From contig CAVSMN010000012.1 in the NCBI GenBank assembly GCA_963729045.1, forward strand, positions 339,683 to 403,682: a DNA stretch of 64,000 bases, written 5' to 3'. Position 1 is the first letter of the stretch. Each line of letters starts with the position of its first letter. Position numbers: made by a program. Shown in pieces: positions 47,001-59,000 of the stretch. The stretch comes from an uncultured Nitrososphaeraceae archaeon. GTDB taxonomy: Archaea > Thermoproteota > Nitrososphaeria > Nitrososphaerales > Nitrososphaeraceae.

Positions 47001-50000
47001 ATCTGCGAACAACTTGACAAGAGGAAAAGCTGACGTCCACTATCTCTATTCAAAATTAGTCTAAATTTTGTTGTAGGGTTTGACTTGTCAATTTGATTTT
47101 CAGTTACAAATATGTTGCAATCTCTCAGCAGTTGTAATTTTGGCACAATATCGTTTCCAACTCTAGTAGCAGCAAAAGTATTAAAGTTGAATGTTTTTGC
47201 TAATAGAGATCCATAGCAAACTGGTCCTCCCAGGCTTTCAGTCTTTTCACCCTCTAGATCTATAATCTCATCTAGGGCCACATGAGAAGCAATGCAGATT
47301 TTCATGAACTTTATCTTTCTTACTTCAAAATTTTAAAGCAACATAATAAGGTTATCATAAGATTTAAAGGATAGGAATAGTTTCAAAATTAATGGATGCC
47401 TAAGAAAAGAACCAGCAGGGGAAGAACTAAAGGTGGAAAAGGAAGTTCAGGAACCGTTCATTGCAGTCAATGCGGTGCGATGGTGCCCAGAGATAAAGCA
47501 AAGAAAATTACAGGAAGAATCACCCTGGTAGAGCCTCAGTTAGCAAAAGAATTGAAAGCACAAGGTGCTTATATTGCCCCTTCAACAGATGTCAAATTTT
47601 ATTGTGTTTCCTGCGCAGTACACCGAGGTATAGTAAAAGTAAGATCGGAAAACGATAGACGAAACTCAGGAAAATTAGGCTAGATAATTTTTTTAAGACT
47701 ATAAAGTCTTATTTGTATATATTTTTATGAAGAATATTTACCAATTAAGCAAGTTTCATTGCTTAGGTAATATTACTTGATTTTTTAAAATAAAAAAATT
47801 TTGTTTTTATTGGCTATTTTCAGGTTTCTTATCGTCTTGAGTAGATGACTTTGTAGTTTCGTTTTTGCCACTATCAGTATCACTAGATGAGCTGGATGCT
47901 GTATCGTTTTTGCCACTATCAGTTTCACTGGATGAGCTGGATGCTGTATCGTTTTTGCCACTATCCGTAATTTTCTTTGTAAATTTCTTATAAATCTCAT
48001 CCTCACCTTCTTGCTCAAGACCAAAAATAATATCAGCAAGATTTCTTCCTGTTTCGTTTGGATCAGTCTGATCTAAATATTGAGCTTTTGTAGTTGTTGA
48101 TGATGATGGTGGTGGTGGTGGTGGAGATTTTGTAGTTGTTGATGATGGTGGTGGTGGAGGTGGTTGTAGTTGTTGATGATGGTGGTGGTGGTGGTGATGT
48201 TGTAGTTGTTGATGATGGTGGTGGTGGAGGTGATGTTGTCGTCGTTGTTGTGGTTGATGATGATTTGGAAGTTTTGTCTGGGGTTGTCATTTTCTTATTA
48301 TCGGGTTTTTCTAAATAATCATTAACATTCTTGGTGATTTTTGATAATGATGTTGGTGGTTCATTAATTCTGGATGTAATAGTACCCGATGAAGCCTCAT
48401 ATTCATGGTTTCTGCTGGACATATCTTTGAATGTTTGAGCTGAAAACAGAGGTGTCCCGAACTTTGTAGAGACTATTTTTAATCTCTCAAGTACAGTTAC
48501 AGCTGCTAAGATTGAAATAATCCATAGGGCTACAGATATGTTTTCTTGGAACGGTATAAAACCAAGAATCACAATGATGATTATTCTTTCGGCTCTTTCT
48601 GCAATGCCTTTTCCTTTTAGGTCTACGCCTAACCCTTCACCTCGGGCTCTTGTATAGCTAACTAACAATGAAAGCGAAAGAGCAACTAGAACAAGTACTG
48701 GGTTTGTAAAACTGCCTATAAGGATACCTGTAAATATGATTATTTCAGATACTTTGTCCAAGACTGAATCAAGATATCCACCCAATGCCGATGTTCTCTT
48801 TGTTACGCGGGCAACCGCTCCGTCTACGACATCAAAGAAGCCTGCTAAAAGTAGGAATAAACTACCTAAGAATGTAGCAGTATACCAATCCACTCCAATC
48901 GCAGGTGAATGTAAAGAAAACATAATAGCTGATATTATTGAAAGACCTAAACCTACCCATGTCCAGAAGCTCGGTCCAAAACCTAAACTTGCAAATCCTC
49001 TCCCTACCTTCTCAATTATAGGATCAAATCTATTTCTTAAGTTGTTAAGCACGTAATAATTTGACCCGTGTCGTAATATATAACCTTTTACTATTTTATA
49101 TTTCGGCGTATATTCTACCCTTCTAATTTCTATTGATTCCAGAATTTAAATAATATAATATTATTGAGAAATTTATTTCGTGCTGAATGTATCTTAATTC
49201 TTTAATAATTTATGATTTGACTATGACTATATTTGTCCAACGAAAATAAGTCAAAAAATTTATCGTTTACGCGCAACAAAGTAGTTATCATAGGACTTGG
49301 CCAACTTGGTCTTCCAGTTGCAAAATATGTTAAAGAACATGGTTTTGATACTTATGGATATGATATAAATCAAAAAACCATGCAATCAGCTGAAGCCAAC
49401 TATGGAATAAAGCAAGCATCCAACTTTGGTGATTTTGACGTACTAATTATCTGTGTATCTACACATAGACCAGATGATATGTTTACACCACAAGTAGATG
49501 GTTTGATGTCTGTTGTTGAAAAGATATCTAGAGAAGCTAAAACAGGCGCACTAATATCAATTGAAAGCACTATACCAAAAGGTACATCTAAAAAAGTATT
49601 TGAAAAAGTAGACCATAGACTACACGTTGTACATGCACCACATAGATGGTATGCATTAGAAGAAGAAGTTCACGGTGTTAATCAATTACGTATTGTAGGA
49701 GGTGTAAGCAACTGCTGCTTGCAACACGGTCTTAACTTTTATGATGGACGGGAGGTAGTACCCCAGACAACAGAAACAACAAAAGCTGCATCATCAGCTG
49801 GGATAAAAACTCTATCAATTCCAATGCATCCAGTATCGTCAGTTGAAGTAGCAGAACTAACAAAAATAGTAGAAAATGCTCATAGATATCTTCAAATAGC
49901 ATTTGCAGAAGAGCTTTACCTCTATTGCAAGTCTAACAGTATCAGTTTTTCTGAATTACGTGAATCACTCAATACAAAATGGAATGTAGAAGTTCTAGAA

Positions 50001-56000: not shown

Positions 56001-59000
56001 GGCCTGATAAATTTCATCGAAGTTTGTAAATAGTATAAAAGTGCTACATAAAATGGCCTCTTCCAAAAAATACCTCCAGCAGCAAATAAACTTCTGATAA
56101 AACTCTTCCTCCATCTAACCTGTTGTTTTATTAATGAATCAAGTGTTGGTGGAACTCCAATATTTACCCTTATCCTTTGCGAATACAAAACCTTCCAATA
56201 ACCGTGGACATCTTGATTAGATTCATCTCGACCATTCTCGTCCTCTAACATATTTTCGGACATGGACCTCTTGGCAGTACCCTCAGCGTTGAGGATTGGA
56301 ATCTGGGCATATTGTTGGCTGGTTGATTTGTTAGAAATCTTTGGAGGTCGAGTCGACAAAACATACGCCGTCATTCTCCTATCAGTTGCAAATTTGAACT
56401 CCATACCTAAGAATCTGTCTCGTGCCCATAGAGGAATAAAGTCTTGTATAGCAACCCGTCTATAGAAACTAAGTGATCCTGCACAACAACTAACGGAATA
56501 AAAAACGGTTTCCATCCCTTTTTGTGCCCTACAAGCCCCATCGGCGTAGACGTCTTGCATTTTCTCAAGAAAGTGATCCCGAAATCCTCCAGTGTGTCTG
56601 TTTTTAACTCGTCCGTGTCCAGTGAGGGCCCCTACTTGTTTATCTGAGTAAAAAATCTGCACAGCCTTTTCAGTTGCATCAACAGCCATGTCACAATCAC
56701 TATCCATGAAAGCGTATATCTCGCCGCGTGCAATCTTGCTAGCGGCCTCTATAGCCTTTTTCTTTCCAAGGCTTTCCTTCAGATGTACTATTCTCAGGTT
56801 AACTGTTTTGTTTTTATCCTTAATCGTGTCAAGAATCTCACCAGTCTTATCCGTACTACCATCGTCTATGACGATTATTTCCTTATTCTTATAAGTTTGG
56901 TCAATGCATGACTGTATACATGTACTAATGTCGGCTTCCTCATTTTTTACAGGAACGACAATAGATACCAGCGGTTTTTCGTTCTCAGGAATTACCTTAT
57001 CGAAATCTTTAATGTATGGGTCTTTATACCGAAAATACGAAATTAATAAAATATTAAATAAAATAAATGAAGTTAAAATGCTGTAGATTCCTACTCCCAG
57101 GTCTATCACATATATGGTCAAATAAATCTTAGTGAATAGAATTACCAGGACGGATGATAAGAGTAATACCCTAACAAACCATCTTTTATTATCCAATTCC
57201 TTTGTATTAATGAATTTAGTTGGATTACTCAAAGCCAAACATTAAATCAACTCGTCGATAGATTAGTTGAAATAAAGCTGTTTATTACTTTTTTCATATT
57301 AGCTTCTTAGAATTGGTTATATGAGATTCTTATAGTAGAAAGATAAGCAACAGAAAAAGGATGATGTAAAAATAGTTCTAAAGTAATCAGAGTATCGTCT
57401 AATTCCACCTCAATCTTTCATTTTCTCTGTCCTCCTTGGAAGATTTTTTCCAATCTTTATAGTGATTCCTACATAAATATACGCGCTTTTTTGAATTATC
57501 AAAATCTAAATCTTGTGACATTTTCGCCTTTGCCAAACTCATTGATCTATCTGCAGTCTCTTCGCAACCTAAGACACTACAGGTAATTCCCTTCTCTACC
57601 TTTCCCATTAAAAAGCAAAAGCCATTATAATATAATAAAGTTAATGGAAAATTTGACAGCAGCTTATAAAGTAAAGTATTGGGCCACTGGGTTATGTACA
57701 ACTATAGCAGCAGTAGAGAATTCAGGATCAATTTGTCCACTTTCAGTTAGAGTCATTCCACTAATTGAAGGATTCAATAATTTCCATACCATGAAATGTT
57801 GGGTTATATCTGGACAGCTTGGGTAACCCCAACTGTACCTCAATCCACCTACCTTTAACCCGAGCTCTTCCTTGATTTTATAATTTACCCAATCTGCTAA
57901 AGCTTCAGTCGTTTCCACTGCCAGCCCGTGTAGGTAGTAGGCATCAGTATAACGACCTTGTTTATTCCATTCATCTATTGTTTCAGCAACTTTATTTCCC
58001 ATTGTTACTGACTGAAATGCAACAACATCATCGGATTCTGAATCAAAATAATCTGCAAGACATAAATGTGAAGAATTGCTAGACCTGGGGAATTCAAACG
58101 TTAGTTCTGAATCAATCTTAGTACCGTCGTGGTATTTTACTGAGAGGCTATTGTTTCCTACCTTTCGACATCGAAAATAAGAGTAAACTGCATGAGGATC
58201 AAATAATTTCTCCTTTACAACTTTGACCTTCCATTCTTTAAGTAGTTCTTCAAACTCATCTTTCAATTCCGTAGCTTTTTTTCCCCTCAATCCCCACGAC
58301 AAGACAAAAAGGGATTTCTTATTCAAGTATTGCCATATTTCTTTGAGCGGAAGGTCATTATTCTCTAGTCTGGTTACAAAATTAAATTTGGGAGGTACAG
58401 GTTTATCTTTTACTGGTTTCACGCTACTTAAGATTTTACTTAAATCTTGCGCATTGGTAGCCTCGTTATATTTTCTTTCTTTCCAACTTGATAGTTTTTC
58501 CAACCATTTATTCATGTACTCTTCTTTACTACCGCTCATCAGATTATTCATCACCTTCAGTCCTTCAAAGGCAGTTTTGCAGTAAAATATTCCAGCTTTG
58601 TAAATATTGCCATCCCCCTTTGCTATCCTATTAATGTAATCGCTATTAATTGCAGCACCACCGCATAAAACTGGAATGTCCATCTTATTCTCTCGCAAAA
58701 ATTCTGAGAAAAGCTGCATTTGTTTTGATGTCGAAACCAATAACGCAGATAATCCCACAGCATCTGCGTTTACTTCTTTAATCTTGTTTACGATACTAGG
58801 AATAGGAACCTGTTTCCCTAAATCAAAAACTTCGTAGCCATTGTTAACCAATATTGTCTTTACCAAATTTTTTCCTATATCATGTACATCGCCATATACA
58901 GTACACAAGACGATTTTTCCTTTGCTAATTCCCTCTTGTTTTATCAGGTATTTCTCTAGCTCCAAAACTGCAGCCTTCATACATTCGGCTGATTTTAGAA

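Follow-up and report, generated by a model that had tools for sequence, protein, structure and literature searches.

A conserved Nitrososphaeraceae gene block with a BshC-fold ligase as a candidate pathway for coupling amino acids to a cell-surface amino sugar

In the window analysed here, a 64,000-nucleotide stretch of the genome of an uncultured Nitrososphaeraceae archaeon, a block conserved among soil ammonia-oxidising archaea comprises, in order, genes for archaetidylinositol-phosphate (AIP) synthase, a short sugar dehydrogenase, a PIG-L de-N-acetylase, ATP-grasp ligase 1, a BshC-fold ligase, a PHP phosphatase, ATP-grasp ligase 2 and a membrane GT2 (Table 1). Most likely, these genes equip a polysaccharide or glycoconjugate of the cell surface with amino acids, attached to an amino sugar, and do not make a new antioxidant thiol. 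In its specific form, in which the block tailors an envelope glycoconjugate whose hexosamine/uronic sugar is de-N-acetylated, N-aminoacylated and amidated by ATP-grasp enzymes, this explanation has, in our estimate, a somewhat better than even chance of being correct. The product could be a wall or glycocalyx polysaccharide, a glycan or a glycolipid. What is established here is which genes are present, to which folds and families their products belong, how the genes are linked and how they are distributed.

A genome-wide survey's note had described the block as a thiol pathway. Its gene order and family scores were reproduced by our profile searches of the window, and the enzyme logic it proposed (a sugar is transferred, PIG-L takes off its N-acetyl group, the BshC-fold enzyme ligates an amino acid on the freed amine, and further ligation by ATP-grasp follows) is plausible. 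Homology to BshC, seen in fold and motifs, also stood, while specific support for a thiol did not emerge; the alternative that the note itself gives, in which the enzymes decorate a glycan of the cell surface or the head group of a lipid, turned out to be the better supported one.

Table 1. Genes of the block, with positions in the window and main profile matches
Feature	Position	Strand	Matches
AIP synthase, CDP-alcohol phosphatidyltransferase	48063-49052	-	NF040950 159.7 bits (cut-off 180); PF01066 47.6
Short UDP-Glc/GDP-Man dehydrogenase-family enzyme	49233-50198	+	PF00984 64.3, PF03721 53.9 bits; TIGR03026 141.9 (cut-off 189.8)
PIG-L/LmbE-family de-N-acetylase	50207-50851	+	PF02585 69.9 bits; TIGR04001 (BshB1) 105.3 (cut-off 182.5)
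ATP-grasp ligase 1 (PylC-like N domain, PRK12767 type)	50897-51974	-	NF009402 221.4 bits (C part), 76.5 (N part)
BshC-fold, class-I-aaRS-like ligase, two frames	52000-53659	-	PF10079 33.0 bits (cut-off 27); TIGR03998 19.1 (cut-off 265.8)
PHP-family (HisJ-like) phosphatase, three frames	53706-54337	-	PF02811 29.4 bits on N-terminal piece
ATP-grasp ligase 2 (PRK12767 type)	54448-55449	+	PF15632 86.2 bits, PF02655 62.4, NF009405 188.3
Membrane GT2	55763-57238	-	PF00535 105.1 bits; PgaC/IcaA 120.7, NodC 95.6, both below cut-off

Components of the block

The membrane GT2 bears motifs typical of processive synthases (DDGSTD, DSD, QQVRW) and hydrophobic segments at both termini, and all nine cluster-linked GT2s carry QxxRW and DSD, which speaks for an envelope glycan. 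It scores best against PgaC/IcaA, the synthase type of PNAG, and NodC, and a GT4 found in clusters of genus g30 passes the model of PelF from the Pel system. PNAG and Pel, both exopolysaccharides of HexNAc that is partly de-N-acetylated, resemble the block in that a deacetylase is linked to the synthase. However, GT2 stays under the PgaC cut-off (120.7 vs 422.3), the PIG-L enzyme is cytoplasmic whereas the PNAG and Pel deacetylases are extracytoplasmic CE4 proteins, and the amino-acid ligases are an addition of the archaeal block.

ATP-grasp 1, also matched by PF21360 and PF02655, adjoins the BshC-like gene in every Nitrososphaeraceae locus bearing the latter, and its orthologues in three other loci (L012-L014) are unbroken, with 358-359 residues. 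Among solved structures, the closest relatives of the two ATP-grasp ligases include the L-amino-acid ligase 3VOT. The unbroken 208-residue orthologue of the PHP protein matches PF02811 with 33.3 bits.

Other properties of the enzymes count against assignment to an envelope glycan. Only the N-terminal and central domains of the dehydrogenase family match the short dehydrogenase, which may oxidize C6 to yield a uronic acid; PF03720, the C-terminal nucleotide-sugar-binding domain, found no match in the window protein or in three of three orthologues (360-381 residues), and its absence fits a non-nucleotide, possibly small substrate. PIG-L is missing from 7 of the 20 Nitrososphaeraceae loci. Finally, the tailoring enzymes are all soluble and all ATP-dependent, so that their action has to precede export; a nucleotide sugar, a lipid-linked sugar or a free glycoside may serve as acceptor.

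The BshC-like protein

The BshC-like protein contains HQPN and DHDF motifs, a Cys4 ribbon, a GTGGSxGY motif and a C-terminal coiled coil, and could act as an amino acid-hexosamine amine ligase. Its orthologue in locus L002 is unbroken (552 residues, 89% identical). The BshC fold assigned to it earlier was recovered in an AlphaFold2 model based on 64 sequences (pLDDT 94.2, pTM 0.92), for which the best Foldseek match was 4WBD (E 2.0e-17, TM 0.62), the structure of B. subtilis YllA, which is BshC, the putative cysteine-adding enzyme of bacillithiol synthesis; class I LysRS 1IRX came next. In VIA-align the fold is shared with 4WBD over the whole length (Z 33.1, 488 of 540 residues, rmsd 4.7); both proteins have a C-terminal coiled coil. 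As stated before, no BshC is recovered when the PDB is searched with a profile of the family, now at E<=10. For one member, P0160, BshC is the sole PDB match, and this single PDB alignment pairs collinear motifs, HQPN with GQQA and DHDF with DHDL, within a significant stretch; a second stretch, non-significant on its own, pairs the GG..Y block with GPGEINY. PIG-L-type deacetylases are genomic partners of both proteins.

On the other hand, identity to BshC amounts to 13-15%, and TIGR03998 scores are 19-41 bits against a cut-off of 265.8, which none of the 60 sampled family representatives reaches (best 41). The invariant His of HQPN and the Cys4 ribbon belong to the BshC-like side, as does the glycan-cluster context. 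Thus, the protein is a homologue of BshC, at the level of fold and motifs, and not its orthologue; the family, 492 clusters at 50% identity, is separate from BshC and mainly archaeal. The claimed invariance of H104, Q105, C319, C321, C343 and C346 holds in 10 sequences; among 64 diverse members it still holds for H104, C319, C343 and C346, with conservation of 90% or more for Q105 and C321.

The model shares the Rossmann catalytic fold of class I aaRS with 1IRX (Z 24.4 over 299 residues), CysRS (3SP1, Z 12.3) and MshC (3C8Z, Z 11.2), but there is no significant sequence match to these enzymes, and no tRNA-binding domains were identified in the BshC-like protein. That an enzyme of aaRS type can ligate an amino acid to the amine of GlcN has a precedent in MshC. 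As to BshC, in vitro reconstitution of its reaction has yet to be achieved (PMC5790435), which leaves the reference chemistry itself uncertain.

Modular organization and genomic context

Conservation within the genus, reported earlier, was confirmed by BshC-like matches in 22 of 24 other genomes, and the block order is kept in all three 20-kb loci fetched, one of which has different flanks; the compared loci are mutual relatives, not independent samples. Across the family the BshC-like gene is patchy, occurring in 86/151 genomes (59/103 of high quality), in 1 of 21 g28 genomes and in 5 of 21 g20 genomes, and ATP-grasp 2 orthologues are present in 115/151 (E<=1e-70). The block consists of two modules with different distributions, which favours an envelope glycan. 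In six of six loci devoid of the BshC-like gene, PHP, ATP-grasp 2 and GT2 stand alone as a trio with ATP-grasp 2 in the middle, and a solitary trio of this kind, its GT2 carrying QxxRW, is seen in many genomes of the family; the BshC-like gene and ATP-grasp 1 form an optional two-gene cassette beside this trio. In genus g20, loci that are syntenic apart from the cassette either have it or lack it between PHP and LarC. The scarcity of GT2, found in 5 of the 20 Nitrososphaeraceae BshC-like loci, argues in the opposite direction; GT4 is likewise found in 5 of 20. The partners in genus g30, namely PIG-L, the PelF-type GT4 (NF038011 156.8 bits, cut-off 100), a GalE-like epimerase and a protein with nine predicted membrane segments, again point to envelope glycan synthesis.

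Beyond Nitrososphaeraceae, 68 archaeal loci with a family member were found, for the most part in anaerobes, strict ones included, with methanogens, Methanoperedens, Archaeoglobales, Altiarchaeota and Bathyarchaeia among the host groups. There the BshC-like gene lies beside PIG-L in glycan-assembly clusters with WecA/MraY-type transferases, DUF354 proteins, FemAB-like transferases and sugar aminotransferases. Counting Pfam-named neighbours in the 49 loci outside Nitrososphaeraceae with at least 6 kb of flank, we found PIG-L in 33 (directly adjoining in 30), DUF354 in 27, FemAB-like proteins in 25, WecA/MraY-type PF00953 in 15, hexapeptide acetyltransferases in 13, DegT in 10, GT2 in 9 and GT4 in 7. 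This context counts for an envelope glycan. Since the Nitrososphaeraceae cluster harbours no WecA/MraY-type or FemAB-like gene, it extends there through the shared BshC-like and PIG-L pair alone.

Possible chemistry and alternative readings

What each enzyme acts on, in which order the steps run, which amino acid is used and where the product ends up are all inferred from this gene content. One module, composed of GT2, ATP-grasp 2 and PHP, would form a HexNAc/uronic polymer or glycoside, whose carboxylate ATP-grasp 2 would amidate with a phosphorylated amine before PHP strips the phosphate. In the other module, PIG-L would remove the N-acetyl group from a hexosamine, the BshC-fold enzyme would activate an amino acid and transfer it to the freed amine, ATP-grasp 1 could attach another amide-linked residue, and the short dehydrogenase would supply a C6 carboxylate. 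Cytoplasmic tailoring enzymes and one membrane synthase would thereby yield an amino-acid-decorated amino sugar.

Precedents from the literature speak for such an envelope product. In the C. jejuni HS:2 capsule, serinol-P or ethanolamine-P is joined by an amide bond to the carboxylate of glucuronate, and the phosphate is then removed, which involves Cj1438, a GT2 fused to an ATP-grasp amidoligase using these amines, and its phosphatase partner Cj1435 (PMC11800379). The conserved PHP-ATP-grasp 2-GT2 trio brings together the same three kinds of enzyme, as a likeness of function only: its genes are separate, its ATP-grasp is of PylC/PRK12767 and not TupA-like type, and its phosphatase is PHP instead of HAD. 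An archaeal chemical precedent, an amino acid on the glucosamine amine near uronic acids in a thick wall, is provided by the Halococcus morrhuae heteropolysaccharide, for which N-glycyl-glucosaminyl bridges are described (PMC4187196, citing Steber and Schleifer 1979); no haloarchaeal locus occurs among the 68 family loci, as scanned by two peptide patterns only. Nitrosocosmicus, according to PMC11559005, has no S-layer and a wall of about 18 nm, and an amino-sugar glycocalyx was proposed for it.

A new low-molecular-weight thiol, a cysteinyl-aminosugar made in mycothiol/bacillithiol style (a sugar is transferred, the product is dephosphorylated and de-N-acetylated, the BshC-like protein ligates cysteine, and ATP-grasp adds a cap), appears unlikely. 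It is favoured by BshC as the nearest solved structure, by PF10079 scores above cut-off (33-35 vs 27 bits), by BshB1 as the best model for PIG-L (105 bits), by the public annotation, which already names the protein BshC, and by the joint occurrence of GT4, PIG-L and the BshC-like gene in g30, as expected of BshA, BshB and BshC; the dehydrogenase without a nucleotide-binding domain is compatible with a small substrate. However, nothing points to cysteine, conservation of all four ribbon cysteines would leave a bound metal no free coordination site, and no sampled member attains the BshC cut-off. BshA above cut-off and bacilliredoxin (PF06491) were each found in none of five genomes (the B. subtilis control was positive), and the g30 GT4 passes the PelF model but not those of BshA or MshA. 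The family is common in strict anaerobes, clustered with lipid-carrier transferases and several glycosyltransferases, and its gene is patchy, an optional cassette in g20. In the genus, EgtB and EgtD of ergothioneine synthesis score above cut-off, which means that genes for a known thiol/thione already exist, and a 2020 review lists bacillithiol and mycothiol as undetected in archaea (PMC7278568). The chances are similarly slim for a soluble non-thiol molecule, an N-aminoacyl/peptidyl amino-uronic glycoside acting as compatible solute, metal chelator or signal. Soluble tailoring enzymes, the truncated dehydrogenase, the inconstant presence of glycosyltransferases and the kinship with 3VOT would suit it. 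Against it, ATP-grasp 2 and PHP accompany a QxxRW membrane GT2 even where the BshC-like gene is absent (6/6 loci), across the family the gene lies in a setting of lipid-carrier-based glycan assembly, and the Pfam-annotated neighbours in the fetched loci included no transporter or regulator of the kind expected in solute or siderophore clusters.

It is also improbable that the block decorates a membrane-lipid head group, with the product of AIP synthase dephosphorylated by PHP as AIP phosphatase, then receiving GlcNAc, de-N-acetylated in the namesake reaction of PIG-L and aminoacylated, to give aminoacylated GlcN on archaetidylinositol resembling a GPI glycolipid anchor. PIG-L belongs to the GlcNAc-PI de-N-acetylase family, one cluster-linked GT2 also matches PF13506 (ceramide-glucosyltransferase type), and AIP synthase, whose C-terminal tail is Thr/Pro-rich, adjoins the block in the window and, in several genera, in L013, L014, L018, L027, L028, L029 and L035. 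Yet it is missing from the cluster in L012, L016, L017 and L019-L026, and PHP is partnered by ATP-grasp 2 and GT2, not by AIP synthase. The latter is the only PF01066 match in genome G000 and stands in a run of housekeeping genes that includes NAD kinase and a PfkB kinase; as the genome has no other CDP-alcohol transferase, AIP synthase probably serves housekeeping and is a neighbour of unproven cluster membership.

Decay of the cluster into pseudogenes, which four frame breaks in three of its genes might suggest, is very improbable. The BshC-like gene is not the sole broken one, as had been thought: ATP-grasp 1 has one break and PHP two, and in total seven breaks fall in 5 of 13 genes, NAD kinase and a 547-residue gene included, EgtD being hit as well. 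The genes are unbroken in the 89%-identical relative. At all four cluster breaks, contigs of other sequencing runs (four runs in total) are exactly one base shorter, and the breaks are therefore best read as probable single-base insertions of this assembly. In ATP-grasp 1, the frame shifts near 51646-51651, with one base fewer at 51648 in contigs of runs X1 and X15; in the BshC-like gene the base is missing at 52797 or 52800 in contigs of four runs; and the PHP gene, recovered by tblastn as three pieces in frames -1, -2 and -3, is one base shorter in other runs at each of two sites, 53914/53915 and 54066.

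Genes of the block and their frame breaks

The eight genes at 48063-57238 lie in the order given in the genome-wide survey's note, namely archaetidylinositol-phosphate (AIP) synthase, short dehydrogenase, PIG-L, ATP-grasp 1, BshC-like ligase, PHP, ATP-grasp 2 and membrane GT2, and the family matches reported there were reproduced by profile scores. AIP synthase scored 159.7 bits on NF040950, just under the cut-off of 180, and 47.6 bits on PF01066, above the cut-off. In the C-terminal part of its ORF the synthase domain is followed by a long Thr/Pro/Ser-rich low-complexity tail; the ORF of a relative has 397 aa. 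The deacetylase exceeded the cut-off of PF02585 (69.9 bits) and obtained 105.3 bits on TIGR04001 (BshB1; cut-off 182.5), scores which place it in the PIG-L family and do not establish BshB1 equivalog status. A full UDP-glucose/GDP-mannose dehydrogenase has NAD-binding, central and C-terminal UDP-binding (PF03720) domains. The enzyme encoded here, which belongs to the UDP-Glc/GDP-Man family, has the N-terminal and central domains only and ends just past the latter; PF03720 was matched neither by this protein nor by any of three orthologues, and its TIGR03026 score of 141.9 bits is under the cut-off of 189.8.

Both ATP-grasp ligases are of the PRK12767 'CPS-like' type with a PylC-like N-terminal domain, their nearest solved structure being the uncharacterised 2PN1. 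The C-terminal part of ATP-grasp 1 alone reached 221.4 bits on NF009402 (cut-off 218); ATP-grasp 2 obtained 183.9 bits on this model and exceeded the cut-offs of PF15632 (86.2 bits) and PF02655 (62.4 bits). The PHP (HisJ-like) phosphoesterase was recognised by PF02811 (cut-off 26.4) both from its N-terminal piece in the window (29.4 bits) and from an intact orthologue at locus L013 (33.3 bits). Processive synthases of the PgaC/IcaA, NodC and chitin, cellulose or hyaluronan type are marked by D, DxD and Q(Q/R)xRW motifs. The membrane GT2 combines such motifs (DDGSTD, DSD and QQVRW) with a GT2 domain (PF00535, 105.1 bits) and hydrophobic segments at both ends, as processive enzymes do; its best equivalog scores, 120.7 bits for PgaC/IcaA (cut-off 422.3) and 95.6 for NodC (cut-off 550), are both under the cut-offs. 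QxxRW and DSD were present in all nine cluster-linked GT2s.

A single frame break, in the BshC-like gene, had been described previously, but more were found: ATP-grasp 1 is spread over two frames and PHP over three. Outside the cluster, the genes of NAD kinase (one break) and of a 547-aa protein (two breaks, three frames) are likewise split, giving seven breaks in 5 of 13 genes over about 18 kb, and EgtD, on another contig, is also split. When contigs of four other public sequencing runs (X1, X2, X15 and X16) were aligned to window 50800-54400, every contig spanning a cluster break proved exactly one base shorter there (Table). Moreover, in a relative at 89% identity, open frames without a break are found for the BshC-like gene, PHP and the locus-contained parts of both ATP-grasp genes. 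These three observations led us to reject the reading that the cluster is decaying and its broken genes are pseudogenes, which appears highly improbable. Most simply, the breaks are read as errors of this assembly (87% complete, 22 contigs) in which single bases were inserted. The splits of the 547-aa gene and NAD kinase match general errors of this kind. The BshC-like gene is spanned, at 95-99% likeness, by contigs of X15 and X16, which are metatranscriptome runs; this gives a weak hint of transcription, as contigs from RNA libraries are no proof of it.

The BshC-like family and the thiol reading

BshC is the putative enzyme of bacillithiol synthesis that adds cysteine to GlcN-malate. Public databases already contain the genes of the block and the 'BshC' label, the Nitrosocosmicus proteins being annotated as 'bacillithiol biosynthesis protein BshC'; among ESM Atlas clusters, the nearest consist of archaeal 'hypothetical proteins' bearing partial PF10079/PF24850 labels. 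A structural model based on 64 diverse family members (pLDDT 94.2, pTM 0.92) shows the Rossmann-like domain and coiled coil of the BshC fold. Foldseek placed 4WBD (Bacillus subtilis BshC) first (E 2.0e-17, TM 0.62), followed by class I LysRS, and an independent scan gave Z 33.1 for 4WBD (488 residues), 24.4 for 1IRX, about 12 for other class I synthetases and 11.2 for MshC. Linking the family to BshC by sequence profile failed, as no BshC was found among PDB sequences at E<=10 and the two matches obtained were due to chance. In a single-sequence search with the family member P0160, 4WBD was the only PDB match (E 0.027), with HQPN opposite GQQA, DHDF opposite DHDL and, in a second stretch that is non-significant by itself, a GG..Y block opposite GPGEINY. 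PF10079 (Rossmann-like_BshC; gathering cut-off 27) was matched by the N-terminal half encoded in the window (33.0 bits) and by L013 (35.3); two other members scored under the cut-off (L094, 25.9; L016, 25.8), and L037 gave no match. The link to BshC is thus drawn from the fold, PF10079 and one weak single-sequence match.

On the BshC equivalog model (TIGR03998, cut-off 265.8) the N-terminal half obtained 19.1 bits. An all-against-all search delimited the family as 492 clusters at 50% identity, and none of 60 full-length representatives, taken from 150 listed, reached the BshC cut-off; the best score was 41.3 bits, and any match at E<=1e-3 was found for 11 of them. Considering these scores against the fold and alignment matches, we conclude that the family is homologous to BshC but is not BshC. 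Across 64 members, H104, P158, W316, C319, C343 and C346 are invariant, and conservation is 90% or more for Q105, P106, D143 and C321.

The survey's note had interpreted the block as a mycothiol/bacillithiol-style pathway leading to a new cysteinyl-aminosugar thiol. The homology to BshC on which this was built is borne out by the fold and the P0160 alignment; the part concerning cysteine gained no support. According to passages of one paper, bshC was first found by co-occurrence with BshA and bacilliredoxins, and the reaction of B. subtilis BshC itself has yet to be reconstituted in vitro (PMC5790435). Such co-occurrence was absent from the window's genome (87% complete) and from four relatives of 99% completeness: the BshA cut-off was reached by no GT4 in any of the five, and bacilliredoxin (PF06491) was found in none, the B. 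subtilis control being positive. EgtB was at or over its cut-off in four of the five genomes and EgtD in three; therefore, the genus already encodes ergothioneine synthesis and, judging from these genes, probably makes this compound. In the window's genome, EgtB scored 428 bits (cut-off 360), and EgtD is split into pieces of 256 and 69 bits, under the cut-off. Both enzymes are also encoded in three complete relatives.

A review, in the passages concerned, states that neither mycothiol nor bacillithiol was detected in archaea, and takes 39 archaeal BshC hits in InterPro as a hint of archaeal bacillithiol (PMC7278568). In the five genomes, our tests provided nothing in favour of cysteine as a substrate of the BshC-like enzyme. 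Besides the missing BshA and bacilliredoxin and the presence of EgtB and EgtD, the AIP synthase gene also speaks against the thiol: it is the only PF01066 gene, and the only CDP-alcohol transferase, of the window's genome, and it lies within a housekeeping run whose adjacency to the cluster varies among loci. Production of a new thiol by this block is therefore improbable, and the 'BshC'/thiol label is probably wrong for this archaeal family.

Two modules in Nitrososphaeraceae and the family elsewhere

The BshC-like family was detected in 86/151 Nitrososphaeraceae genomes (three of the 151 flagged as unpublished), in 59/103 high-quality ones and in 17/18 genera, with a patchy distribution (5/21 in genus g20, 1/21 in g28 and 6/20 in g30). 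Orthologues of ATP-grasp 2 (E<=1e-70) occur in 115/151 genomes with a different pattern by genus (20/21, 19/21 and 1/20, respectively). Among 20 fetched BshC-like loci, ATP-grasp was encoded within the fetched flank of all 20 (types 1 and 2 not being told apart), PIG-L and PHP in 13 each, short dehydrogenase in eight, and GT2 and GT4 in five each. In all six loci fetched from genomes devoid of the BshC-like gene, PHP, ATP-grasp 2 and GT2 form a stand-alone trio. Within g20, with syntenic flanks, the pair of BshC-like and ATP-grasp 1 genes lies between PHP and LarC in L021 and is missing at that place in L105 and L108. The differing distributions, the trio and this pair of states together indicate two modules: GT2, ATP-grasp 2 and PHP are a widespread unit, and the BshC-like gene with ATP-grasp 1, usually accompanied by PIG-L and short dehydrogenase, forms an optional addition. 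The two are merged in Nitrosocosmicus.

A second cluster type was found in g30 (L016, and also L022, L026, L030 and L031). It comprises genes of the BshC-like protein, PIG-L, a 215-aa protein without assignment, a PelF-type GT4, a GalE-like epimerase, a protein with nine predicted membrane segments, and ATP-grasp 1. The GT4 scored 156.8 bits on the PelF model (cut-off 100), and 89 and 95 bits on BshA and MshA, both far under the cut-offs. One complete genome (G053) has both cluster types.

Outside Nitrososphaeraceae, one genome of each species was scanned for two motifs from an alignment of 18 distant members, which gave 68 loci in Methanomicrobiales, Methanocellales, Methanoperedens, Archaeoglobales, Syntrophoarchaeum, Alkanophaga, Altiarchaeota, Thermoplasmatales, Micrarchaeota and Bathyarchaeia, and in two records titled as bacterial MAGs (L038, Deltaproteobacteria; L083, 'uncultured bacterium'). 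The neighbours in these two records are archaeal-type, and the titles could reflect a binning error or gene transfer. ORFs were called, 132 neighbours from 15 loci were named by Pfam, and the families were then counted in all loci by local search. Forty-nine loci had 6 kb or more of flank; in these, PIG-L was present in 33 and was the immediate neighbour of the BshC-like gene in 30. DUF354 was encoded in 27 loci and FemAB-like/Acetyltransf_6 proteins in 25, the latter often as two to four copies. DUF1616 membrane proteins occurred in 23 loci, WecA/MraY-type transferases (PF00953) in 15, hexapeptide acetyltransferases in 13 and DegT aminotransferases in 10; GT2 was present in nine and GT4 in seven, and three loci had none of the families counted. 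Since these loci are interrelated and were retrieved by two motifs, the counts should be taken as descriptive of a pattern rather than as a statistical test. What is recorded for DUF354 is only a predicted glycosyltransferase-like fold (PMC4520260). Undecaprenyl-diphosphatase (BacA), an exosortase-like protein and CE4 deacetylases were also among the Pfam-named neighbours. A soluble protein of about 480-545 aa accompanies the BshC-like, PIG-L, DUF354 and FemAB-like genes in 23/49 loci of Euryarchaeota and other archaea; it matched no Pfam or NCBIfam-free family and no PDB sequence at E<=0.1. Their gene content points to the assembly of glycans on lipid carriers and to the attachment of amino acids.

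Possible role in the cell envelope

We favour, with modest confidence, the interpretation that the block tailors an amino-acid-decorated amino sugar of a cell-envelope glycoconjugate. All substrates in the following scheme are putative. PIG-L would free the amine of a hexosamine, and the BshC-fold enzyme would activate an amino acid, presumably as an adenylate by analogy with class I synthetases and MshC, and acylate this amine. One more residue could be added by ATP-grasp 1, and the short dehydrogenase may produce a C6 carboxylate. ATP-grasp 2 would amidate a carboxylate with a phosphorylated amine, from which PHP would strip the phosphate. GT2 would polymerise or export the glycan. A precedent for the GT2, ATP-grasp 2 and PHP unit is found in Campylobacter jejuni, where, as described in part of one report, the GT2/ATP-grasp amidoligase Cj1438 acts with the phosphatase Cj1435 (PMC11800379). 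Passages of other papers describe N-glycyl-glucosaminyl bridges in the Halococcus wall (PMC4187196) and, for Nitrosocosmicus, a thick wall, no S-layer and a proposed amino-sugar glycocalyx (PMC11559005). Another soluble small molecule seems an improbable product of the block, and we are similarly doubtful about an inositol-lipid head group.

If the family indeed loads amino acids onto hexosamine amines, it would provide enzymology for N-aminoacyl-glucosamine linkages of a kind identified chemically in Halococcus walls, as well as a testable gene set for the wall or glycocalyx of S-layer-free Nitrosocosmicus, and a tractable relative for studying the unreconstituted reaction of BshC. Strains of one genus occur in nature with the two-gene cassette or lacking it, so that a comparison is readily at hand. 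A bolder proposal, which we make tentatively and regard as rather unlikely, is that the family is the missing archaeal N-aminoacyl-hexosamine synthase, which together with PIG-L would initiate a peptide at the amine of a hexosamine, either carrier-linked or part of a polymer; this peptide would be extended by FemAB-like proteins in Euryarchaeota and related groups or by ATP-grasp in Nitrososphaeraceae. Such a synthase would imply that, beyond the pseudomurein lineages, a glycopeptide polymer of the envelope is widespread in archaea, account for part of the thick wall replacing the S-layer in Nitrosocosmicus, and hint at the kind of reaction catalysed by BshC itself. No description of this cluster was found within the literature collection searched. 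Three points appear to be new: the family forms a distinct, mainly archaeal branch linked to PIG-L and glycan assembly, the Nitrososphaeraceae block is composed of two modules, and its thiol label is probably mistaken.

In several genera, clusters are adjoined by large proteins that carry F5/8 type C (discoidin), Ig-like, cadherin-like or laminin-G domains and may be surface carbohydrate-binding proteins. Those with F5/8 type C and Ig-like domains beside several clusters are secreted.

Table. Positions of features in the window, in the genome containing it (G000, contigs C7 and C16) and in fetched loci (L numbers)
Feature	Position	Observation
NAD kinase and 547-aa gene	window 43659-46327	split, outside the cluster
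Low-complexity tail of AIP synthase ORF	window 48063-48400	
Frame break	window 51648	one base missing in X1, X15
Frame break	window 52797 or 52800	one base missing in X1, X15; X2, X16
Frame break	window 53914/53915	one base missing in X1, X2, X15
Frame break	window 54066	one base missing in X2, X15
100-aa ORF	window 57399-57701 (-)	Cys-rich motif, no family match; between GT2 and the gene of methionine synthase, whose end it overlaps
EgtB, EgtD	G000:C7:61898-63199 and G000:C16:81572-82511	outside the window
Second cluster type of g30	L016:10814-17473	
Soluble protein of about 480-545 aa	L037:11289-12920	equivalents in other loci
Large F5/8 type C/Ig-like/cadherin-like/laminin-G-domain proteins	L017:4271-6196, L019:12773-15673, L020:5130-7343
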